64,000 nt of DNA from Deltaproteobacteria bacterium (GTDB lineage Bacteria; Desulfobacterota; Binatia; HRBIN30; CADEER01): assembly GCA_029262455.1 (NCBI GenBank), contig JAJCZJ010000087.1, positions 11,135 through 75,134 of the forward strand, read 5' to 3'. The notes under the pieces were generated by a model. That model was not told the DNA's origin. It saw only the letters and a list, made by a program, of their open reading frames with translations, and did no database searches. Shown piece by piece: positions 6,644 to 61,393 of this stretch. Each line of letters starts with the position of its first letter. Within the stretch, counting starts at the first letter, position 1. The position numbers were made by a program, and so were the translations under genes.

Positions 6644-8221
6644 TTACGGAATCATCAGGCGCGGCTGGCGCCGCATCGACATCAGATAGACCCGCAAAGC
6701 GCCCTTTTCATGCATCGACAAGCCTGCAAACGCATCGCGGGCGGCGGCAGCCTCGCCGTCATGACCGGCGATCGCATAGTCGAAACTCGGGGCACGACCG
6801 TCGTGTAGATACGGCGCCGAGTCGGCTACGCCCCAAAGCCTCGGCGTCATGTAGTGATCTTTGCCGACACCGCGCTGCTCATGGAGCGCCCGGTTCGCTG
6901 GCCCCATGTCGTGGCGCTTGAGATCGCTAAACAACCAGACCGGGTAGCCGTCGAGACTGGGCTCGTAGCGCAAACCCGGCTGCCGCATCGACGCCGCCAA
7001 ATCGATTGAGGGTAAACCCTCGAGCTCGAGGATAGGGCTCTTCAGTACCAACATCGGCCGATGACACTCGGCGCAACCAAGCTCGTGAAACGACTTGCGG
7101 CCACGCTGGAAATCGTCCAAAAAACTGGTAGTCGTCGGCCCGAGCAATCCGCTCGCGGCCGGCCCCAACTCTTCGCGCTGAATCAGCGGCTCGACAATCG
7201 GCATCTCCAAGAGAGCCAGGTGGACGATCATTGCGGACAACGGGCCATCCGCTAGTTCCGCCATCACACCATCGGAATCGGGATCCTGCGGATCGTCGCC
7301 GCCTCCGACCGCGTCAGCTGAGGCGATTCTGAGTAGCGCGTCACTCTGGACTCCCATGTGAACCTGCAAAGCATCGATCGCGAAGTCTGCAATGTCTATG
7401 AAGTTGCCTTTCCATCCAAACGGTTTGACGACCAAGTCCGCATCGACACCGCGAACCTCCGCGAGATCGAGGGAGCCGTCATCGGTAAGTCGCAACACGC
7501 CAAAGTCGACGCCCTTCGAGATCAATCGCACCTCGCCGGAGCCTTCGCGCAGCAAGTCAGAGCCAACCTGTTGTAGCTCGACGGTCATTTCACGCGCCAA
7601 CGCGACCACCACTCCGAGTCCCATCAAAGCCTGCGGATTGCGAGCGTCGCCACTCTCGACCGACTCACCATCGCCATTGAGAAACGCGTTGTCGAGTTCC
7701 GAACCAGCACCGTTCGGCCCCCCGACCCAGTGACAGGACGTGCACGAGATGGTTTCCGGGCCGCCGAACGCACCTCCGTGAACTCTTCTAAACGGACCGT
7801 TCGGGCTCTTCGCCGAACCCCCAGCACCCAAGCCGTCGGCAAAACCGTACTCGTGCTCGAAAATCATTCGGCCCAAATCCGCGACTGTTGCTAAGCAAAT
7901 ACCTCCGGTTGATAGAGTCGCCGCATCTACAAGTGTGTGAGCCTCGCGCAAAAAGGTCCCGGGCACTGCGGCCTCACGGAGTCTCTTCGCCCGTCGAATC
8001 TCCGCCCATCGGTGCGCATCGCGGGCCGCCTCCAAACTCAATGGAAGCGCTCGGCGCATCGGCGGACAATCAACCGGCCAATGAGCGGCGACCGGCTCGA
8101 CGTCGACAACCGGTGCACTTCGGCAAGCGCCCGACAGCGCTCCAGCAATCACCAGGCACGCGACCACTACCGGACTTCCGACACATCGAATCGTCCGAAT
8201 CGTCCGAATCGTCCGAATCAT
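6644..8221 (-). CDS. DUF1111-type di-haem oxidoreductase (putative peroxidase/thiol oxidoreductase), paralog A
   Basis: Two CxxCH haem motifs (CTSCH, CAECH) plus FSDLKRHDMGP and APYLHDGRA. Its ATG overlaps the upstream paralog stop as ATGA. Confidence 0.8.
   Translation of the reverse strand: MIRTIRTIRTIRCVGSPVVVACLVIAGALSGACRSAPVVDVEPVAAHWPVDCPPMRRALPLSLEAARDAHRWAEIRRAKRLREAAVPGTFLREAHTLVDAATLSTGGICLATVADLGRMIFEHEYGFADGLGAGGSAKSPNGPFRRVHGGAFGGPETISCTSCHWVGGPNGAGSELDNAFLNGDGESVESGDARNPQALMGLGVVVALAREMTVELQQVGSDLLREGSGEVRLISKGVDFGVLRLTDDGSLDLAEVRGVDADLVVKPFGWKGNFIDIADFAIDALQVHMGVQSDALLRIASADAVGGGDDPQDPDSDGVMAELADGPLSAMIVHLALLEMPIVEPLIQREELGPAASGLLGPTTTSFLDDFQRGRKSFHELGCAECHRPMLVLKSPILELEGLPSIDLAASMRQPGLRYEPSLDGYPVWLFSDLKRHDMGPANRALHEQRGVGKDHYMTPRLWGVADSAPYLHDGRAPSFDYAIAGHDGEAAAARDAFAGLSMHEKGALRVYLMSMRRQPRLMIP
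8187..8221 (-). repeat. 9-bp tandem repeat (cgaatcgtc, about 3.8 copies) encoding M(IRT)x4 at the 5' end of paralog A
   Basis: Read directly from the sequence: atcgaatcgtccgaatcgtccgaatcgtccgaatcat. In frame, it lies in the n-region of the signal peptide. Confidence 0.8.
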
Positions 8222-9768
8222 GGCAGGAACAATTTGGGCTGGCGGGACAGAGAGGCAAGAAAAACCCGAATGCTCGCTCGCTCGCCCTCGTCGAGAGCCA
8301 GGTACGCATCCCGGACAGGTGCTGCCGCACCGCCGTGTAGGACGATCGCATCGTGAACCGTCGGCGCCCGGCCATCGTGCAAATAGGGCGCAGTGTCCGC
8401 CAATCCCCAGAGCGGGCGCGTCAGAAAATGGCGCGCTGGGACACCTCCTTGTTCAGACCGGCTCGCCAGAGCAGGCCCCATGTCGTGCCGCTTCAGATCG
8501 CTGAACAGGTGCACCAAAAACGGTGTCGTCTTCGAAGCGTACTTTGGTTCCACCTTGGGCCCATCACCGTCGCGGGCAACGTCGACGACAAACCGCGGCC
8601 GTTCATCGGTCGTCCCGACATTCATCCTGGGATCGGCGATTTCCAACGTTGGGACATGACAACCCGCGCAGCCAATCACCTCGAAGGAGCTACGCCCGGC
8701 TGCAAACGCGTCGAGCAACCCACTATCTATCGGCGGCCGCAAGATCGGTGCCTCGAGTTGCGCCAGGTACCCGACCATTGTCGCCAACATCCCAGCATCG
8801 ACTTCTAGCGTGACGCCGTCATCGTCGAGATCGAACCAACGCTTTCCATCACCGTACGGCTGCCCATCCAATTCGCCATCGCGCACCTTTTCCTGAATCG
8901 GTAGCGACAACATACCCTGGTGAATGTGAAACGACTCTTCGATCATGCCGCGTAGGGTCGCTTGATGCCCCTTCCATCCAAACGGACGGACGACGAGATC
9001 CTCGGCAACCCCTTCAACGGCGGCGCGATCGAGCGATCCGTCTGGATGCCCCACGATGCGACCAAAAGACACCCCCTTGGCGCTCAGGGCCTGCTCGATG
9101 TCTCGCCCCTTTTCGCTTGCCTTCTCTGCGGTTTGCGCAGCTTGCGCCTGCAGCTCGTTAGTCATTTCAGCCGCCAGCACCGCAATCGGCCCGAGGCCCA
9201 AGAGGTGCGGCGGGTTGCGCTCGTCGGCACTACTGAGACGCCCGCCGTCGCCTAAGAGAAAGGCATTTTGTGTCTGCATCCCGGCACCGTCCGGCCCACC
9301 TTTGGAATGGCAACCAAAACATCCGAAAGCATCGGGTCCGCCTGCCGTTCCCCGATGCACGCGTCCGAGACGCGGCGTGTATCCAGGCGTCTTGCGGCCG
9401 TCCCGAGCCCCCCAGCCGTTTTCAGGACGCAATAACAACCCAAAGAGTTCATCGCCGACGACAAACAGAGTTTCCTTGGTAATCGGACGGTGATCGAAAT
9501 CGACCGTCGTCAGGGTTGCATGCTCAATGAGCTCTCCCGGGTCCCGGGCATCGAGCATGCGGTCAAAGTCTTCGCGCCGACGCAGCTCAACCGCCTCCCC
9601 CACTTGAACGAGAAGTGCTTCATCGCTGGGGATCACCATCTCGTCGGCCAATATCCCACCGAGCCATGTATCCTCGCGCGCTACTCCGGGGATCGCGACG
9701 ACGGCACCCAGGAGCGCAGCCGCCGCTCCGAAGCGGAGACCCGTACGATGGTTTGTCAGGCGGATCAT
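8218..9768 (-). CDS. DUF1111-type di-haem oxidoreductase, paralog B
   Basis: CFGCH and CAGCH haem motifs, FSDLKRHDMGP and APYLHDGRAPT. ATG at 9768 (MIRLTNHRTGLRFGAAAALLG..., SD-like GGTGGA) is preferred over the GTG at 9831. Confidence 0.8.
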   Translation of the reverse strand: MIRLTNHRTGLRFGAAAALLGAVVAIPGVAREDTWLGGILADEMVIPSDEALLVQVGEAVELRRREDFDRMLDARDPGELIEHATLTTVDFDHRPITKETLFVVGDELFGLLLRPENGWGARDGRKTPGYTPRLGRVHRGTAGGPDAFGCFGCHSKGGPDGAGMQTQNAFLLGDGGRLSSADERNPPHLLGLGPIAVLAAEMTNELQAQAAQTAEKASEKGRDIEQALSAKGVSFGRIVGHPDGSLDRAAVEGVAEDLVVRPFGWKGHQATLRGMIEESFHIHQGMLSLPIQEKVRDGELDGQPYGDGKRWFDLDDDGVTLEVDAGMLATMVGYLAQLEAPILRPPIDSGLLDAFAAGRSSFEVIGCAGCHVPTLEIADPRMNVGTTDERPRFVVDVARDGDGPKVEPKYASKTTPFLVHLFSDLKRHDMGPALASRSEQGGVPARHFLTRPLWGLADTAPYLHDGRAPTVHDAIVLHGGAAAPVRDAYLALDEGERASIRVFLASLSRQPKLFLP

Positions 9769-10027
9769 TTCCACCCAACCTGCACAATTCAACCGCCGTA
9801 GGAAAGCCCAACCCAACCCTTCGGGACGCACAGCGCAGCCATGTCAATTCATCGGCTCGGACAAAGCCCCAAACCGGAGCAGCCGAAGTCTAGCCGTCCG
9901 GGGTCGTTCTTTTCAACGGACTGCCGGCCCCCGGAGGAATTCTCACTGGGGTGACCGATACTTTGCCGCAAGAAATCGGATCGAGTCAGCTCACCGGATA
10001 CATAGGCCCAGACAATCAAACTCGTCG

Positions 10028-54700: not shown

Positions 54701-55336
54701 TCAGGAATCTCCGACGTGATCAAGCAACAAACGGGCAAACCAGGCGCGAAAGCGGCTACGCACCTCCGGATCGCTTTCGTGCCCTGTCATGCAGTCGAGA
54801 AACGGAGCGAAGATTCCGTCGCCGAGCGCCGCCACGGCGGCCAGCCGCACGATGAATTCAGAGTCTTCACGCGCGCCCGGCGCTACTCCCGAAAACTCGA
54901 CGCGCCGCTTGTGCACCAGTTCCGTCAGATCGCGCAGAACCGGATTGTCGCGGTCTGTCTCATCCGGCCCGTCAGCCGTCAGGGCACTCCACGCCAATAG
55001 ACGCGCCAGTCCCGAGTCACCCAGCGCCCCGAAAATGCGACCTATCACTTCAACCCCCGTGTCCCCCAACGCCGGCTCCCCGTCGAGAACCTCTACGAGC
55101 TCGGCTTCAATCCGTTCCACCGCACGCGTTTGCAACGCCTGGATCAATCCGTCGCGATTCTCGAAATGGTGCAGAATCGTCGGGTGCGCGATGCCTACAT
55201 CACGAGCTAAATCCTGTAATCGAATCGCTTCGGGCCCGGCCTCCCGCAACCGCTTCTCCGCGGCGTCCAAGATCACTCGCCGCGCCTCCTCGGCGGTCCT
55301 GCGCTTCCGCACCGGCGCCTTCTTCGTCCCCGCCAT
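54701..55336 (-). CDS. TetR-family transcriptional regulator
   Basis: HTH IRLQDLARDVGIAHPTILHHFENRDGL. ATG at 55336 is preferred over the TTG at 55378. Confidence 0.88.
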   Translation of the reverse strand: MAGTKKAPVRKRRTAEEARRVILDAAEKRLREAGPEAIRLQDLARDVGIAHPTILHHFENRDGLIQALQTRAVERIEAELVEVLDGEPALGDTGVEVIGRIFGALGDSGLARLLAWSALTADGPDETDRDNPVLRDLTELVHKRRVEFSGVAPGAREDSEFIVRLAAVAALGDGIFAPFLDCMTGHESDPEVRSRFRAWFARLLLDHVGDS

Positions 55337-55389
55337 TAAGTTGCCCCACTCTTGTTTCGCCGATTTCTCTATTGACAATGCTGTCGACA

Positions 55390-55418
55390 GTGCTATCTAC
55401 AGCACTGTCAGTTACCCG
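55390..55418. promoter_or_regulatory. Candidate TetR operator (overlapping palindromes)
   Basis: The 10-bp palindrome ctgtcgacag (55390-99) overlaps the inverted repeat gacagtgct-N6-agcactgtc (55395-55418), between the divergent TetR and Coq4-like genes. Confidence 0.5.
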
Positions 55419-55445
55419 TTCAAGCCGAGGAAGGGAGAAATCGCA

Positions 55446-56162
55446 ATGACCGCCAAATTCCAGCCGACCGGACGGATCCAGCCACTCGTCGCACTTAGAG
55501 CACTGCGAGACCTCATTCGTGATCCTGACGACACCTCCCACGTCTTCGTGGTTATCGCTGCCCTGTCAAGCCGATCCGATACCCGGCTCTACAACCGCTT
55601 TCGCACCAGCCCCGCCGCATCCCGCCTACTGAAGGAGCGGCCGGCCCTCCTCGAGGTCTTATCGGATCGCGAGGCGCTGCTCGCCATGCCCGTCGGTACG
55701 CTCGGGCGCACCTACGGTGAGTTCATGAATCGCGAACAGATCTCCGCCGACGGGCTGGTCGAAGCGGATCGTTTCGAAGCCGACATCGACATGCCCGAAG
55801 AACGCCGATGGTTCGGAGAGCGCTTGCGCGACATGCACGACCTCTGGCACGTCGTCACCGGCTACAAACGTGACCTCGTCGGGGAGGCGTGTCTGCTCGC
55901 TTTCACATACGCACAGTTGCGCAACCCCGGCATCGGACTCATCGTCGCAGCAGCTTATTGGAAGGCCGGCTCGGATTTCTCCTACGCGCGCCCACTGATG
56001 CGCGACGCCTACCGTCGCGGAAAGTCCGCGCATTGGCTACCTGAGCAGCGCTGGGAAGAACTCCTCGCCAAGCCGTTGCTGGAGGTACGCCAACAACTCT
56101 GCGTCGGCGATCCACCCGAGTACGAGCAAGTCCGTTCCGACGGGGCGCCCGCCCTAGCCTGA
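55446..56162 (+). CDS. Coq4-family protein (bacterial homolog of ubiquinone biosynthesis COQ4)
   Basis: HDLWHVVTGYKRDLVGE fits the Coq4 HDxxH-x11-E metal motif; 238 aa. The long ORF-track extension from 54789 is antisense to the TetR gene and is rejected. Confidence 0.7.
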   Translation: MTAKFQPTGRIQPLVALRALRDLIRDPDDTSHVFVVIAALSSRSDTRLYNRFRTSPAASRLLKERPALLEVLSDREALLAMPVGTLGRTYGEFMNREQISADGLVEADRFEADIDMPEERRWFGERLRDMHDLWHVVTGYKRDLVGEACLLAFTYAQLRNPGIGLIVAAAYWKAGSDFSYARPLMRDAYRRGKSAHWLPEQRWEELLAKPLLEVRQQLCVGDPPEYEQVRSDGAPALA

Positions 56163-56376
56163 ACACACAGGGACTCGTCGCCGGAGAGGCGTTCGAGAAG
56201 ACCCTCGGCGCAAGAGCCTTGCCGGCGTCGAGTCGTATCACAGCTACCACCCGCCGGAGTTGTACGCGGCTCGGCGGCGCCTCTCCCTCCCGGTACCTGG
56301 CTGCTCCCGTCCGCTTCAATCGAAGTGAACCACCACCTAGGATGTTCCCGGTTGACTCCATCCAAGTTTTGGTGAG

Positions 56377-57375
56377 ATGCAATCGCAGGGAGAGATCAGT
56401 CAGGGCAAGTCCATTCTTGCCGCGCGTATCGCTAATGAGAAGAAGGATGTGGTCGTACTGATGGGCGGTAGGTGTGTCTCATTCACACTCCTCGACCGTC
56501 TCATCGTCGTCGAGTCTGAATCGGCTGGATTCATCTCGGACCTGCAGCGCTGCTTTGAAGACGTCGTAGCGCACTCGCCAGCCGGCAGCGCTTCGGCCGA
56601 CCTGTACGTTTCAGTCACCGCGGCCAAGGGCGCTGAGTCGATATACGAGGTCAAGTCGGCCCCGGAGCAAGTTCTGCAATTGCAAGCAGTTCGCGTGCAA
56701 GGCGCCGGGTGGACCGTAGGGCGCGCGCTCGTCCAGTGGGCTATCGACTCGGCGAGTCACCACTATGTGTTTCACTCGGGCTCGATCGCGCACGACGGTC
56801 ACGGCGTCCTACTGCCGGGCTCGTCTCACTCGGGCAAGTCCACCCTCACGGTCGCACTGGCACAACGCGGGTTCGACATCCTCTCGGACGAAGTCGGCGC
56901 GATCCGTGCCGATACGGGTCTGCAAACCGCCTTCGGCCGTTCTCTCTCGATCCGCTCGTCCGTCGTGCGCGATCTCGGACTCGCGTCTCAACTAGACGCC
57001 AAATGCCTAGTTGAAGACGCGTACATTCTCCAAACGAGCTCGCTGGGTCTGTCGCGCACATCGACGGCCCGTCTGTCCTTGGTCGTCTTCCCGACCTATT
57101 CCGAGCACGCGGCCACAGATCTTCAAGCAATACGACCCGCCGCGGCAGCCATGGCACTCTATGAGGCGTCTTGCTCGCAGGCGCGTTGGAAAGTGGCAGG
57201 ACTCGATTTCGTGATCGACCTCGCAAAAAGCATCCCATGCTTCGAGCTCACGTACTCGAACATGCACGACGCCGCCCGAGAGATCGCGAATACCCTTGCC
57301 GCTGTTTGTGCTTCGAAGTCCGAAGCCTCTCCCTTGCGAAATCGCGCTACTGAAAAGACGGCGTCGTCTCAATGA
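56377..57375 (+). CDS. HPr-kinase-like P-loop kinase (HprK-related)
   Basis: HSGSIAHDGHGVLLPGSSHSGKSTLTVALAQRGFDILSDEV, i.e. a Walker-A motif in an HprK C-terminal-domain-like context. The true start may be the ATG at 56461 (MGGRCVSF). Confidence 0.7.
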   Translation: MQSQGEISQGKSILAARIANEKKDVVVLMGGRCVSFTLLDRLIVVESESAGFISDLQRCFEDVVAHSPAGSASADLYVSVTAAKGAESIYEVKSAPEQVLQLQAVRVQGAGWTVGRALVQWAIDSASHHYVFHSGSIAHDGHGVLLPGSSHSGKSTLTVALAQRGFDILSDEVGAIRADTGLQTAFGRSLSIRSSVVRDLGLASQLDAKCLVEDAYILQTSSLGLSRTSTARLSLVVFPTYSEHAATDLQAIRPAAAAMALYEASCSQARWKVAGLDFVIDLAKSIPCFELTYSNMHDAAREIANTLAAVCASKSEASPLRNRATEKTASSQ

Positions 57376-57680
57376 AACGACCCGGGGAGCTTCGACCTCT
57401 AGGCAGAAACGACCTCTTGACCCGCGAATTGGACGGCGAGTTTTTTCTCTACGATCCGGTCACAGATCGGGTCGCGCTGATCAACCAGTCCGCCGCCGTA
57501 GTCTTCGACCTGTGTAACGGATCGCTCACAGAGGACGAAATCGTGGCAGAAGTGAAACGGCTGTACGCCGCGGGGGGCGAGCAAGTGGACAACGATGTTC
57601 GAGCCACCCTCGCGGACTTCGCCGCGCGTGGGCTCACTGTCCGTGCAACGGCGAGGGATCACCTAGAGTCGGACGAGTAG
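57372..57680 (+). CDS. Stand-alone PqqD-family protein (RiPP recognition element-like)
   Basis: LTRELDGEFFLYDPVTDRVALINQSAAVVFDLCNGSLTEDEIVAEV is the PqqD signature. ATGA overlap with the kinase stop. Confidence 0.8.
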   Translation: MKRPGELRPLGRNDLLTRELDGEFFLYDPVTDRVALINQSAAVVFDLCNGSLTEDEIVAEVKRLYAAGGEQVDNDVRATLADFAARGLTVRATARDHLESDE

Positions 57681-58937
57681 GTGGAATGGGCACCCGAAAT
57701 CCTCTCGGTAAACGACCGGCTGCTCTTGCTCGCCGTTTGCGACTCGGAATCCAGGGGCGAAGATGCAGCGACACTGCTTTCCCAGGAGCAAGTCGACTGG
57801 GAGCAACTGGGCCGGGATTCGGGAGGAAATCGTTGCGACTCGTTCGTCGCTGAGCTGCTCTCTCACCCCTCACTGCGATCTCATCTGGAGCCGGAGCGCG
57901 CAGCCGACTGGCGCGCGCGAGGAATGCTCAGCGTCTTCCGGATGGAAACGGCTCTCATGCGAGTCCGCGATCTGGGCAAAGCGTTTCACGCTGCAGGCAT
58001 CAGCATGTTGGCCTACAAGGGCGTAGACTTTCAGCTTCGATGTTACTCGAGTGAGCGGCCGCGCGGGTTTGGCGATATCGATATCCTCGTGGCCCCAAGC
58101 GACGCGGAACGAGCCGCCGCTTGCCTCGCTGCCGCGGGCTACCATCACGTCGATCGGCAGAAGCCGCTCGCCTACTACCGCAACTTTCACCTCCACGCCG
58201 TCTATCGGCACCCGCGCCAGCCTTGGCCGGTCGAGCTGCACTGGGCGCTCGACAGCCCATTCGCAGCCGGACTCGATCCCACGGCCCTCATCCTGCGCGC
58301 AGCCCGTTCGAGTGCCGAACTCGGTCCTTCCGTTCTACGCGCGAGCCCAATCGATGCACTGGCTCTGATGTGTATCCATCTCGACAAGCATCTAGGTCAT
58401 GCAGCTTGGCTGCCTGGCGCGAGCGTTCGACTCAAAGCAGTGCTCATCGAGTCGGGGCTCATCTGGCTGGTGGACATCGTTCGGTGGTTACAGCAACACT
58501 CCGCGCCTTATTCCCCCGACCAGATCGTCGAGCGGATGCGACAGCTCGGCGCCGAGCAGTCGTATATTGTTGCCCTGCGACTCGCCAGTGATCTCGAGCC
58601 GAAGACGCTGCCAACCTGGGTTGCGCAGCAGACTGCACGCATGCCGCGGCGCATACCGTTGATCGTACGACTGATTTATCCCGACCTCGCTCGTCGGCGG
58701 GCCGTCGACGGCGCAGCCGAGAAACGACGCATGCGACTACTGACCATGTCTCAACTCGGTGGGTTTCGACCACTTCGACTGCTGCAGTTTTTACTGCCGG
58801 CTGCACGTATCCCGCTCACACCGAGAACGCCGATCGCAGCTCGCGTCGTCGGTGCCGCCCGACGCGGCGGCCTTCTTCTTGCCAACACGTTGGCGCTCGC
58901 CCAAGCCACAGTGCGAGAGCGTTGGGGCCGACGGTAG
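57681..58937 (+). CDS. Nucleotidyltransferase family protein (NTP_transf_5-like)
   Basis: LAYKGVDFQLRCYSSERPRGFGDIDILVAPSDAERAAACL has a G-x-G...DxD pol-beta-type motif. The GTG start abuts the PqqD stop. Confidence 0.7.
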   Translation: MEWAPEILSVNDRLLLLAVCDSESRGEDAATLLSQEQVDWEQLGRDSGGNRCDSFVAELLSHPSLRSHLEPERAADWRARGMLSVFRMETALMRVRDLGKAFHAAGISMLAYKGVDFQLRCYSSERPRGFGDIDILVAPSDAERAAACLAAAGYHHVDRQKPLAYYRNFHLHAVYRHPRQPWPVELHWALDSPFAAGLDPTALILRAARSSAELGPSVLRASPIDALALMCIHLDKHLGHAAWLPGASVRLKAVLIESGLIWLVDIVRWLQQHSAPYSPDQIVERMRQLGAEQSYIVALRLASDLEPKTLPTWVAQQTARMPRRIPLIVRLIYPDLARRRAVDGAAEKRRMRLLTMSQLGGFRPLRLLQFLLPAARIPLTPRTPIAARVVGAARRGGLLLANTLALAQATVRERWGRR

Positions 58938-58982
58938 CCGAACGACCTCGCGCTCTTCCCCTTTTGTCGGTCGGCCCAACTC

Positions 58983-59003
58983 GTCTCGACATAGCCTCGA
59001 GAC
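58983..59003. terminator. Hairpin between the convergent NTase and GT-C genes
   Basis: gtctcga-N7-tcgagac, a perfect 7-bp stem without a U-tract. Confidence 0.35.
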
Positions 59004-59011
59004 CACTCCGC

Positions 59012-60514
59012 TCAATCCAGGAAGGGCTGGTAGTACAAGGGGATCAGCTGCGCGAACCACACGTATAGGTTGATCCCGATCATCGAGCATACGACCGCGT
59101 GCGGCAGATACCGTGCCGAGTGGGGCCCGAGCAGCAGGGACCACCCGGCTGTCCCGAGCAGACCGAGCGCACCAATCGAGGGAAACAGGTACCGGCCGTT
59201 GTAGCGACCGGACGCGAGCCCATTCTTCACCATGGCCAGGAACGCGAGAGCTGCCACGAGCCAAACGACTCTCCAACATCTGGAGCCACCTGGCGCGGCC
59301 CGTACATGTCTGCTCGACGACTGGTGGCCGAGCCACATCCAGGCGAGCAGCATGCAGACTGCGATTCGAAGATCGAGCCAAGCAGCAAACAACACCAGCA
59401 TCGCCTGTTCGACCGGCACAAGACCCCGGCGCCAGATGCCGTGCGATTCAGGGGCTTGAGCCAGGAGACGCAGGCTTGCGAACCAGCCGACACCCAGCAA
59501 GCCCGAGAGCAGCCAGGTCAGCGTCTTGGAGAATTCCGAAGATTGGGACCTGACGATGTCCCAGTAGCCCAGCGCGGCACGCCAGGCTTCCACGCGGGGC
59601 CCGCGATTTAGTCCCTGTGTGGAAAGAGCACGCGCGAGTGCGTTCTCCCATAAGGGCTGCGCGGCTTCCGAAGCGACGAGAGAAAACGCCAGGATTAGTC
59701 CCGTAGCGAGCACAGCTCCTGCGACCAGAAGAGCAGAGCGGCCTTTCAAGCACCACAGACGCCAGAACGCTGCCAGGAGGACGGCCAGCGCCATCGGCAA
59801 GACCGTCAACTTGACCAATACCGGAAGGCAGATTCCCGCTACCAGCATGAGCGCAGTCCGGCCGGTACCGACGCGTTCCACACCAATGCTGCTCAGAAGC
59901 CAGAAGAGATAGGCTCCGGCCAGGTGCGCGAGCGGGTCGTTGCTCACGATCGCATTGAAATGCAGGAAGCCGGGCGTCAGGCCAACTAGGGCCATCGTCG
60001 CCGGCGCTATCACAGTCGGCTCGGGGACGAAACGCAGAACCCCCTTGTAAATGAAATGGAGCGCCAAGCCCCCTAGGAGCAGATTGATCCAGCGCAGGAG
60101 ATGGGGTCCCAGTTCGAACTTGTAATTCTTCGCATTCCACAGAACGCGGGGGGCGCTCCCCCAGGGGGCCCTCTTGGGAAGCCGGTAGCCGCCCACAAGC
60201 GAGTGCCGCGACCACACCTCTATTTCACGCACCAGCTTCACGGGCCAGCCCGCTAGCCAATAGTACAATGGGGGCTGCCTCTGCTCCCAGTTCCGTGGCG
60301 ACATGTGCTGATCTAGGGCACGGCTCCGCACGACCAAGTAGTGCTGGCGCTCATCAACGGTATCCCAAAGAGGCCAGAGTACGCTGTACCCCACAGCGAA
60401 GAAAAAGTAGAGGCCCAAGATCAGGCGATACCAGTGCAAAGCGCTGCGCGGCGCGACCTCTTGCGGCTTCACACAAGTGCCCGGCGACACCGATCGGTTC
60501 TGCGATTTGTTCAT
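59012..60514 (-). CDS. GT-C-fold membrane glycosyltransferase (ArnT/PMT-like)
   Basis: 500 aa with about 12 TM helices. The first loop carries WDTVDERQHY, the DE motif typical of GT-C enzymes. Confidence 0.55.
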   Translation of the reverse strand: MNKSQNRSVSPGTCVKPQEVAPRSALHWYRLILGLYFFFAVGYSVLWPLWDTVDERQHYLVVRSRALDQHMSPRNWEQRQPPLYYWLAGWPVKLVREIEVWSRHSLVGGYRLPKRAPWGSAPRVLWNAKNYKFELGPHLLRWINLLLGGLALHFIYKGVLRFVPEPTVIAPATMALVGLTPGFLHFNAIVSNDPLAHLAGAYLFWLLSSIGVERVGTGRTALMLVAGICLPVLVKLTVLPMALAVLLAAFWRLWCLKGRSALLVAGAVLATGLILAFSLVASEAAQPLWENALARALSTQGLNRGPRVEAWRAALGYWDIVRSQSSEFSKTLTWLLSGLLGVGWFASLRLLAQAPESHGIWRRGLVPVEQAMLVLFAAWLDLRIAVCMLLAWMWLGHQSSSRHVRAAPGGSRCWRVVWLVAALAFLAMVKNGLASGRYNGRYLFPSIGALGLLGTAGWSLLLGPHSARYLPHAVVCSMIGINLYVWFAQLIPLYYQPFLD

Positions 60515-60653
60515 CGATGCCCGGACTCCAGCTTCGCGATGGGCGTTCTCGTGCCGCCTCTATTTAGTGCGCTACACGGCTCGCTCTGGCAAGGCTGTGG
60601 TCTCGCGCTACTGAGCTTCCGGAGCGGCGCTCCGGATGTAGCCAACCCCGATG

Positions 60654-60698
60654 GGGAGCATCCCGATTAGGGAGCATCCTGATAGGGAACATCCTGGA
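60654..60698. repeat. Three tandem 15-16-bp direct repeats upstream of the GT-C gene
   Basis: gggagcatcccgatta / gggagcatcctgata / gggaacatcctgga, lying 140-185 nt upstream of the start at 60514. Confidence 0.7.
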
Positions 60699-60829
60699 AT
60701 CCGTGACGCTGGGCGCTTCTAGTTGCGAGACCCGATCGTCTCTGGACGCCACTCGGGGGCGCAGTCATCCGAAGCAGAAAATCGGTTGCCTTGGACCGAG
60801 AGCGGTGATCGGCCGGTGATGCCCTGGCG

Positions 60830-61393
60830 TCAAGGGCACGAAGCTGAGTTGCAATTGCAATCGACTTTACCGGCTGAGCAAGTATGAACCGTGGTCGTCG
60901 TACCAGGGATCTTGAAGTCAATCCAAGTAGCGAGACGAAACGGACCCCTTCCCGGCTGAGGGACCGGGCAGTTGTTAGAGACCTCGTTGAGGATGGCGAG
61001 GGGTATTGGATCGCATAGCGGGTTCTCGAAACATGAGGGTTGATTCAGCACCACATTGGTCACGAGATTATGGATTGGACAGGAGACTCCGGGCCCCTCG
61101 AACGATTCCGCTACCCAAACGAAGTGGACATCGACATTCGGCTCACCCCCCGGAACCTTCCCCAAAACACAGAGCTCCGTGCCGGGCCCTAACGGGCACG
61201 GCGCAAGGTAGCATAACAGAGAATCTAGCGGCGGTGAACATTCTCCGGCAGCAGACGCGACTCCTCGAATCGAGGGTGCGAAGGTGAGACCTAGGGTCGC
61301 TCCTCCTATCAACGCGGTACGCCGCGTCACGGCTGCTGAGTCAGTCTCTGCAGCTTGTCGCGGGCGGTGAAGGGCGTTCTTCCGGTCAGACAT
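60830..61393 (-). CDS. Tat-signal Cys-rich secreted hypothetical protein
   Basis: TRRTALIGGATLGLTFAPSIRGVASAAG is a twin-arginine signal. The mature part has about 13 Cys, including a C-terminal CSAGKVDCNCNSASCP. Confidence 0.55.
   Translation of the reverse strand: MSDRKNALHRPRQAAETDSAAVTRRTALIGGATLGLTFAPSIRGVASAAGECSPPLDSLLCYLAPCPLGPGTELCVLGKVPGGEPNVDVHFVWVAESFEGPGVSCPIHNLVTNVVLNQPSCFENPLCDPIPLAILNEVSNNCPVPQPGRGPFRLATWIDFKIPGTTTTVHTCSAGKVDCNCNSASCP

Follow-up and report, generated by a model that had tools for sequence, protein, structure and literature searches.

To our knowledge, the tailoring of short lasso peptides is the only known task of PqqD-type elements, HprK-like kinases and PF14907 enzymes. 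The HprK-like kinases PsmK and PadeK phosphorylate a serine of the lasso precursor (PMC6993621, PMC9266682), which for PsmK is the C-terminal serine of the pseudomycoidin precursor (PMC6993621), and lasso-peptide kinases depend on a His-Lys-Asp-Asp motif (PMC9266682). The addition of one or two hexoses (+162 Da) onto the phosphate requires PsmN, an "uncharacterised nucleotidyltransferase" (PMC6993621, PMC9266682); its D134A/D136A mutant is inactive (PMC6993621), and the protein is either the transferase itself or the maker of an intermediate (PMC6993621; PMC9266682). Here we analyze a 64,000-nucleotide stretch of DNA from a Deltaproteobacteria bacterium (GenBank assembly GCA_029262455.1, contig JAJCZJ010000087.1, positions 11,135 to 75,134 of the forward strand), hereafter called the window, whose positions are counted from its first base. 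It encodes, one after another, an HprK-like kinase, a stand-alone PqqD domain and a PF14907 nucleotidyltransferase, and next to this triad (or cassette, as we call it across genomes) lie genes for a membrane protein with a predicted GT-C glycosyltransferase fold and for a protein with a twin-arginine translocation (Tat) signal, which we call TATC. Our analysis gives an even chance that this five-gene unit (56377-61393) modifies an exported protein, TATC, and not a small peptide.

The kinase, PqqD and nucleotidyltransferase genes

The triad lies on the forward strand and comprises an HprK-like P-loop kinase (56377-57375, 332 aa as the listed open reading frame (ORF)), a stand-alone PqqD domain of the recognition-element (RRE) type found with peptides made by ribosomes and modified after translation (RiPPs) (57372-57680, 102 aa), and a pol-beta-type nucleotidyltransferase of family PF14907 (NTP_transf_5; 57681-58937, 418 aa). 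By ORF reading, the kinase stop and the PqqD start share the ATGA at 57372-57375, and the GTG start of the nucleotidyltransferase at 57681 directly follows the PqqD TAG stop (57678-57680). The kinase probably starts at the ATG at 56461 (304 aa) rather than at 56377, because homologues begin M-x-x-S-C-x-S-F in an alignment with eleven of them. Its P-loop GSSHSGKST is encoded at 56818-56844, and the nucleotidyltransferase carries the pol-beta-type G-x-G-D-I-D motif within GFGDIDILV (58065-58091). A preliminary description of this DNA, made from the letters and an ORF list, had reported three coupled genes and both motifs, all of which are present as it stated; the span that it gave, 56163-58937, does contain the three ORFs, while its left end is only the first base after the stop of an upstream Coq4-family gene.

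Profile searches bore out the three domain identities. The best NCBIfam match of the kinase was TIGR04352 "HprK-related kinase A" (97.2 bits, E = 9e-28, model positions 12-278 of 280), which falls short of the curated cut-off of 200 bits. The PqqD domain exceeded the gathering threshold of PF05402 (40.3 versus 23.4 bits); its top NCBIfam match was TIGR03859 PqqD (28.3 bits), and the second was TIGR04353, at 26.1 bits under a cut-off of 35. The families "HprK-related kinase A" and "HPr-rel-A system PqqD", to which the preliminary description had tentatively assigned the two proteins, are thus the best and second-best matches, respectively, whereas membership fails on the sub-cut-off scores: the window kinase and PqqD domain are relatives of TIGR04352 and TIGR04353, not members. 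The neighborhood typical of TIGR04352, a PqqD-family protein and PF14907, is found around the window kinase and likewise in locus L013, a true TIGR04352 member (332 bits) with a PqqD-kinase-NTP_transf_5 arrangement. The nucleotidyltransferase reached 108.2 bits against PF14907 (gathering threshold 31.2 bits), its residues K113, G114, R128, D132, D134, E185 and H187 are invariant across nine relatives, and no solved structure related to it was detectable by sequence. Past the Pfam domain, residues ~305-418 form an arginine-rich, partly hydrophobic extension of ~110 residues, which is typical of the window subfamily and shorter or absent in the L003/L005/L009 subfamily.

The catalytic core of the kinase is intact, with H133, K154 and D171-E172 invariant in an alignment of its homologues and matching the His-Lys-Asp-Asp motif of lasso-peptide kinases. 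The family profile aligns to the solved HPr kinases 3tqf and 1jb1 in the catalytic core only (the His, the G-x-x-G-K-S P-loop and the acidic pair), and this shared P-loop core is all that speaks for a genuine HPr kinase/phosphorylase acting in carbon catabolite control. We find that identity scarcely credible, since the scores of 20.6 bits for TIGR00679 (HPr kinase) and 21.1 bits for PF07475 lie far under the cut-offs of 240 and 33.3, no scanned ORF of the window matches an HPr or phosphotransferase system (PTS) family, and the gene is tightly coupled to those for the PqqD domain and the nucleotidyltransferase. The preliminary description had named a genuine HPr kinase with an HPr gene nearby as the case that would overturn its reading, and these results exclude it.

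Recurrence of the triad in other genomes

Loci were found by word-indexed and pattern searches, and each fetched locus was then mapped by tblastn and hidden Markov model (HMM) searches. Wherever the contig was long enough, genes for the kinase, the PqqD domain and the nucleotidyltransferase co-occurred, at about 15 loci in all (the window, L001/2/8, L003/4, L005, L009, L010/11, L012, L028, L029/30, L115, L116, L118, L119, L120 and the contig of P0011). With kinase, PqqD and nucleotidyltransferase abbreviated as K, P and N, at least five gene orders were seen (K-P-N, K-N-P, P-K-N, N-P-K, and one with P on the opposite strand), and kinase and PqqD form a single polypeptide in the homologues P0007 and P0009. 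Gene rearrangement with retention, plus fusion, is a classical sign of cooperating proteins; the conserved linkage whose lack would have spoken against the earlier reading is present. That the kinase can be joined in one chain to a domain that binds peptides speaks for a peptide or protein as its substrate, and the earlier designation as a peptide- or protein-tailoring module fits both these fusions and the PsmK/PsmN precedent (PMC6993621). Genome scans with kinase and TATC patterns yielded almost solely one Planctomycetota metagenome-assembled genome (MAG).

A rough neighbor-joining tree placed the kinases of all window-type triad loci in one clade, apart from that of L013; the closest cassette is L001, with a kinase 58% identical to that of the window. 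The lasso-type kinases of L014 and L025 fall outside this clade. Their matches to TIGR04352 cover the P-loop only (34-40 bits), whereas the window kinase matches the model over its full length (97 bits), which argues against the triad being part of a split lasso-peptide cluster of the paeninodin/pseudomycoidin type with its cyclase, B2 protease and precursor elsewhere. In favor of such a split, kinase, PqqD and PF14907 do occur jointly in lasso clusters: L014 combines a lasso-type PqqD, an HprK-like kinase and NTP_transf_5 with two Asn_synthase genes, and in L025 an Asn_synthase gene, a 37-aa ORF and an HprK-like/ScmC-like kinase (L025:11621-13358) lie ~8 kb from a close homologue of the window GT-C gene; a second PMT-family gene and two sulfatase genes are also near this lasso-like set. 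Clusters of this sort were met only with the lasso-type kinases of L014 and L025. The 64-kb window has no Asn_synthase gene among its large ORFs, nor was one seen among the called genes of the Pfam-annotated clade loci, the other clade loci having been screened with the cassette queries only. The absence of a lasso cyclase noted in the preliminary description was thus confirmed, with no PF00733 match among the 20 large window ORFs or the scanned neighbors. Neither a lasso precursor nor a B2 protease was recognized, as there was no conserved small intergenic ORF and the flanking genes belonged to other families or had no match, the B2 model not having been run on every small ORF. Taken with the separate clade, this makes a split lasso cluster very improbable.

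TATC, a candidate substrate

The preliminary description had called the triad an orphan without a precursor. Its reading stopped at 58937, and it missed the two genes directly downstream, the GT-C gene (59012-60514) and the TATC gene (60830-61393). Both are on the reverse strand, with the TATC gene upstream of the GT-C gene. TATC is a protein of 187 aa with a twin-arginine signal and 12 cysteines, and it ends in S-C-P. The leader (residues 1-49; 61247-61393) consists of T-R-R-T-A-L-I, with the two arginine codons at 61319-61324, then the hydrophobic GGATLGLTFAPSIRGV, then an A-S-A cleavage-type site, and includes an F-A-P-S-I motif. TATC thus has the features of a Tat signal, and its export is predicted. 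An AlphaFold2 model of moderate confidence (predicted local distance difference test (pLDDT) 63) showed a beta-sandwich core at residues ~56-187 and a disordered N-terminus. Ser53 (61235-61237) falls within the disordered linker that leads up to the core (pLDDT < 50). Foldseek comparison of the model with the PDB returned generic beta-sandwich matches only (best E = 0.02, template modeling (TM) score ≤ 0.38), and no fold was assigned.

TATC belongs to a very small family. A word-indexed homologue search returned only the query itself, and an exhaustive phmmer search of 1.84 billion representative proteins found three clear relatives (P0039, P0041 and the C-terminal domain of P0040) and one marginal one. 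Each family member ends in [S/T]-C-P, encoded at 60833-60841 in the window. The homologue in L005, a Planctomycetota MAG, is 38% identical to TATC (E = 3e-30), has the same length of 187 aa and the same 12 cysteines, and adjoins both a GT-C gene and the cassette. P0039 in L028 stands in the order X356-TATC-kinase-PqqD-NTP_transf_5, in which gene ends overlap or leave 13 bp between them, and P0041 in L029/L030 in the order X344-TATC-PqqD-kinase-NTP_transf_5-PqqD; the gene identities at these loci were confirmed by tblastn and HMM searches. TATC therefore lies in or beside the kinase/PqqD/nucleotidyltransferase set at four of five independent loci (the window, L005, L028 and L029/L030; not L031), and these TATC-bearing loci are scattered over the kinase tree rather than clustered. 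With TATC cassettes also in Planctomycetota, the distribution across phyla is patchy. The substrate, which the preliminary description had given as unknown, has an obvious candidate in TATC, because TATC shares an operon with the triad in independent loci.

Immediately upstream of TATC at three loci is a gene for a protein of ~345 aa, X344 (L005:14686-15720, reverse strand; L028:354-1424, forward strand; L029:1004-2038, forward strand). It has an N-terminal domain without a family and a weak PqqD-like C-terminal domain (PF05402, 22 bits), and it is absent from the window. Its interpretation as a degenerate kinase was rejected (hhalign probability 1.3%).

The GT-C membrane protein

The gene between TATC and the triad (59012-60514, reverse strand) runs convergently to the triad, with 74 bp between them, and its product is a 500-aa polytopic membrane protein. 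Pfam gave no match to this protein, even at E up to 1, and so none to PMT, PMT_2 or DUF2142, whereas homologues at 41-42% identity carry PF13231 (PMT_2) or PF09913 (DUF2142) and distant ones are named glycosyltransferase family 39. An AlphaFold2 model built from a 17-sequence alignment had a pLDDT of 78 and a predicted TM score (pTM) of 0.84, and its top 20 Foldseek matches in the PDB were all GT-C enzymes (probability 1.00, E ~1e-3, TM ≤ 0.51), among them ArnT, ALG9, AftB, Pmt4, EmbA/B/C, AglB, PglB and STT3. The first loop contains the motif P-x-W-x(3-5)-D-E-x(2)-H-Y, in which P48, D54, E55 and H58 are invariant. By its modeled polytopic helical core and this acidic first-loop motif, the protein has the predicted fold of a GT-C glycosyltransferase. 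A GT-C-type gene adjoins the cassette at eight loci (the window, L001, L003, L005, L009, L010/11, L028 and L119), with PMT_2 scores of 26.9 bits for L003 and 40.5 bits for L005; the assignment in L009 was made by reading the sequence only, and those in L028 and L119 concern an N-terminal and a C-terminal fragment, respectively.

A kinase paired with a nucleotidyltransferase is also the classical route of sugar activation. The unit could therefore be a glycan pathway in which the kinase acts on a sugar or lipid, the nucleotidyltransferase makes a donor resembling a nucleoside diphosphate (NDP)-sugar, the GT-C enzyme transfers it to an envelope polymer and PqqD is a scaffold only. Besides the classical pairing itself, this reading can draw on the UbiA-family prenyltransferase gene (PF01040; L009:9056-9970, forward strand) just upstream of the kinase in L009, and on ORFs of L010 that look GT4-like and sulfotransferase-like by reading only. 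It can also draw on L027, a Chloroflexota MAG, where genes for NTP_transf_5, a Polysacc_synt flippase and a GT-C homologue stand in a row (L027:1297-6201) without kinase or PqqD, a hint that PF14907 and GT-C enzymes may work jointly in a glycan pathway alone. However, the kinase core aligns to HprK-type protein kinases, its closest characterized relatives phosphorylate peptides (PMC9266682), PqqD domains bind peptides and are fused to the kinase in P0007 and P0009, and the linkage to TATC would be left unexplained. We consider a pathway of this kind quite unlikely, and continue with the reading of TATC as the modified protein.

Tat-signal proteins linked to the cassette

Proteins with a Tat signal are encoded within 5 kb of the cassette at nine loci: the window, L001 (two proteins), L003, L005, L009, L010, L028, L029 and L118. 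Those of L001 (171 and 232 aa), L003 (318 aa), L010 (168 aa), L009 (212 aa) and L118 (308 aa) come from loci that lack TATC; the 318-aa protein of L003 had been tried as a TATC homologue and was not homologous. Their mature parts are unrelated to each other and none has a Pfam match, while their N-termini align. The gene in L118, a locus fetched later, lies 26 bp upstream of the kinase, and that in L009 has a GT-C/TPR gene on one side and, on the other, a radical SAM gene that begins right at its stop. When a leader HMM was built leaving out one locus at a time, the left-out leader always ranked first among the non-training matches (14.6-36 bits), and no match in ~190 kb of control DNA exceeded 13.4 bits.

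In all ten cassette-linked Tat-signal proteins, the proline of [F/Y]-x-x-P-x-[I/V/M] is followed at a distance of 12-13 residues by a serine. This serine falls a few residues past the predicted cleavage site and corresponds to Ser53 of the window TATC. L118 is the sole out-of-sample case, in which the spaced serine is present and a flanking residue differs.

Two of these loci showed further features. The radical SAM enzyme of L009 (PF04055, 690 aa), encoded with the 212-aa protein at L009:3146-5856 on the reverse strand, looks B12-binding by reading. The 171-aa Tat-signal protein downstream of the L001 cassette (L001:10461-10976) contains C-C-G-V-H-D-D-G-Y, which by eye resembles the active-site motif of secreted phospholipase A2, with no Pfam match.

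Cassettes without the partners and the weighing of the alternatives

A last genome scan, made with the nucleotidyltransferase and thus out of sample, recovered two further clade members, L115 (a Holophagae MAG) and L116 (Acanthopleuribacter pedis KCTC 12899), both with the gene order PqqD-kinase-nucleotidyltransferase. After the triad comes a Maf-like (MptE-like/DUF115, PF01973) protein of ~605 aa (L115:10861-12690; L116:10915-12726; 111-118 bits), whose start overlaps the nucleotidyltransferase stop in L116. PF01973 is a domain of Maf flagellin glycosyltransferases (PMC3426422, PMC4065374). A Tat-signal or GT-C neighbor had been expected for every clade member; these two loci ran counter to this, and the Tat/GT-C partnership characterizes most of the window clade and is not universal. 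The common thread is a protein-glycosylation-type enzyme, either GT-C or Maf-like, which fits a protein substrate. A. pedis KCTC 12899 is a cultured strain of the clade, and its cassette is the Maf-like variant, without TATC; among cultured strains, none with the TATC form was found.

Several observations weigh against a unit devoted to TATC. L115 and L116 lack a Tat-signal protein, a GT-C gene and TATC within 10 kb, and L013, the true TIGR04352 locus, stands alone without a Tat-signal or GT-C neighbor. The closest cassette, L001, has other Tat-signal proteins only and no TATC in its 14 kb. P0040, an 831-aa protein with a Sec-type signal, carries a TATC domain without a nearby cassette; this domain forms the C-terminal 150 residues of the protein (L031:10001-12496, GCA_028281765.1), whose gene has FGE-sulfatase, TIR and FG-GAP genes for neighbors. 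In L026 and L027, GT-C homologues stand without the triad, and BLAST gave no alignment among the GT-C proteins from the window, L003 and L005. For the most part, the leader model picks up Tat signals in general, as the Escherichia coli HyaA and FdnG signals score 21 and 18 bits under the nine-sequence model, values that are not strictly comparable with the range of the left-out leaders given above, each of which was scored under its own 7-8-sequence model. Because HyaA and FdnG score similarly, we do not claim a specialized Tat leader, only an enrichment of Tat signals. The serine-spacing pattern, which retrieved the nine training proteins and one spurious frame in 290 kb against 0.1 matches in shuffled sequence, was defined post hoc, after the sequences had been viewed. 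Lastly, TATC ends in proline, while the known lasso kinases target a C-terminal serine.

The exceptions among these points, namely the triads of L013, L115 and L116 without Tat-signal or GT-C neighbors and the GT-C homologues without a triad, fit another possibility, as does the position of the window TATC and GT-C genes on the strand opposite to the triad. The triad may be an orphan tailoring module, acting on a small unannotated peptide or on a substrate with its gene elsewhere, with TATC and the GT-C protein as merely co-located envelope genes. However, TATC lies inside the operon in L028 and L029/L030, with genes overlapping or nearly abutting. For a family with three clear relatives among 1.84e9 proteins, a place beside this rare cassette at four of five loci is far beyond chance. 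The intergenic regions of the window also hold no conserved small ORF. On this evidence we judge an orphan module to be unlikely, and retain the modification of TATC as the preferred reading.

Genomic setting of the unit

The genes that flank the unit belong to other families (two TetR regulators, a FAD hydroxylase, a glyoxalase-family protein, a Coq4-family protein and an amidohydrolase). The guanine-cytosine (GC) content is ~0.6 and flat over the triad region, no sigma-70 promoter-like sites were seen around the unit, and terminator-like sites were weak only. Four intergenic regions of the window were inspected, and none held a conserved small ORF. An Rfam search of the region gave no matches. 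Neither did a PADLOC search, so that a defense system finds no support, and this reading was rejected.

Upstream of the kinase, the listed 457-aa ORF at 54789-56162 (forward strand) is a high-GC artefact whose 5' half overlaps the TetR gene at 54701-55378 (reverse strand); the real gene there is probably that of a 244-aa Coq4-family protein starting at 55428 (PF05019, 82 bits), and a Coq4-family gene beside a TetR regulator is an unusual pairing for a bacterium. Far from the unit, the window also carries two adjacent paralogues of di-haem oxidoreductase (DHOR, PF06537), of ~530 aa each (6644-9831, reverse strand). The monomeric isocitrate dehydrogenase that it encodes is 81% identical to one from a "Deltaproteobacteria bacterium" MAG.

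Discussion

The genes, their domains, the intact catalytic motifs, the Tat signal and the repeated genomic linkage are observed directly. Building on them, we infer that TATC is the substrate, and with it the modified residue and each chemical step of the following scheme. TATC would be made with its twin-arginine leader, which the PqqD domain would bind in the manner of a RiPP recognition element, thereby recruiting the HprK-like kinase; leader recognition of this type is suggested by the co-occurrence of the genes and by the kinase-PqqD fusions. The kinase would then phosphorylate a serine. Ser53, just past the signal cleavage site, is the preferred candidate because the spaced serine is the only feature common to all linked proteins, and the C-terminal [S/T]-C-P is the alternative site. 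The PF14907 enzyme might extend the phosphate by a hexose or nucleotide, in analogy to PsmN and phosphorylated pseudomycoidin. The Tat pathway carries folded proteins, and the modified, folded TATC would leave the cytoplasm by this route; on the membrane's outer face, the GT-C enzyme may act on TATC or its glycan, using a sugar linked to polyprenyl phosphate.

The same parts permit a broader and more doubtful proposal, which we put forward tentatively and regard as improbable, though not remotely so: that the cassettes represent a new, leader-guided marking of whole exported proteins, in which a shared Tat leader and a serine at a fixed distance sit on unrelated passenger domains. PqqD would read the leader in the cytoplasm, the serine would receive a phosphate that the PF14907 enzyme would extend ahead of Tat export, and a GT-C or Maf-like enzyme would complete a phosphodiester-linked glycan or attach the protein to an envelope glycan. 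If so, the mark would be a sorting or decoration signal, with a logic like that of lipoprotein or sortase signals and built from RiPP-type parts.

Comparison with known systems

Among GT-C protein glycosyltransferases (PMT/GT39, PglB/AglB and ArnT-type), the window protein finds its likeness in the predicted fold, the acidic first-loop motif and the position of its gene beside that of an exported protein. It differs from PMT and oligosaccharyltransferase (OST) enzymes in having no Pfam match of its own and no large periplasmic domain, and in the coupling of its gene to those for a cytoplasmic kinase, an RRE and a nucleotidyltransferase, which is undescribed for PMT or OST. The SynChlorMet cassette (HprK-like ScmC, PqqD-like ScmD and radical SAM enzymes) resembles the unit in its pairing of HprK-like and PqqD-like proteins, in the faint or weak matches of homologues to PF27840 "ScmC", and in the radical SAM gene coupled to the Tat-signal gene of L009. 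Yet the ScmC/ScmD scores are negligible (TIGR04248 at 18 bits against a cut-off of 100, TIGR04249 absent from the matches of the window kinase), and the window has no radical SAM/SPASM genes. With the HPr-rel-A system (TIGR04352, the TIGR04353 "PqqD family peptide chaperone" and a PF14907 neighbor) the window shares the arrangement also seen in L013, whereas its proteins score below the cut-offs (97 versus 200 and 26 versus 35 bits) and its kinase forms a separate clade, and the true member that we examined lacks Tat-signal and GT-C neighbors. The catalogued HPr-rel-A relatives have no function and no literature that we could find: in the literature searched, no paper mentioned TIGR04352, TIGR04353 or the HPr-rel-A system, PF14907 appeared in one unrelated survey only, and Tat combined with PqqD gave nothing relevant.

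The nearest described counterpart is the tailoring of pseudomycoidin and paeninodin by PsmK/PadeK, PsmN and a B1/PqqD protein, which uses the same three protein types as the window, including a kinase with a His/Lys/acidic-pair core and a nucleotidyltransferase with a D-x-D motif. The window cluster differs from it in having no cyclase, B2 protease, short precursor or ABC exporter, in an acidic pair that is D-E and not D-D, and in a kinase from a separate clade. Instead of a precursor of ~40 aa ending in serine, its candidate substrate is a folded 187-aa Tat-signal protein ending in proline, and the system includes a GT-C membrane glycosyltransferase. The parts are thus known, while the linkage of an RRE, a kinase and a nucleotidyltransferase with a Tat-signal protein plus a GT-C enzyme is, as far as we found, undescribed. 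If the clade does act on full-length Tat-exported proteins, the orphan families would gain a testable substrate, a single named protein with two candidate residues, and there would be a kind of bacterial protein phospho-glycosylation with a GT-C enzyme, which was not described in the literature searched. RiPP-style leader recognition would then extend from the short lasso peptides of PsmK and PadeK to secretion-coupled protein modification.

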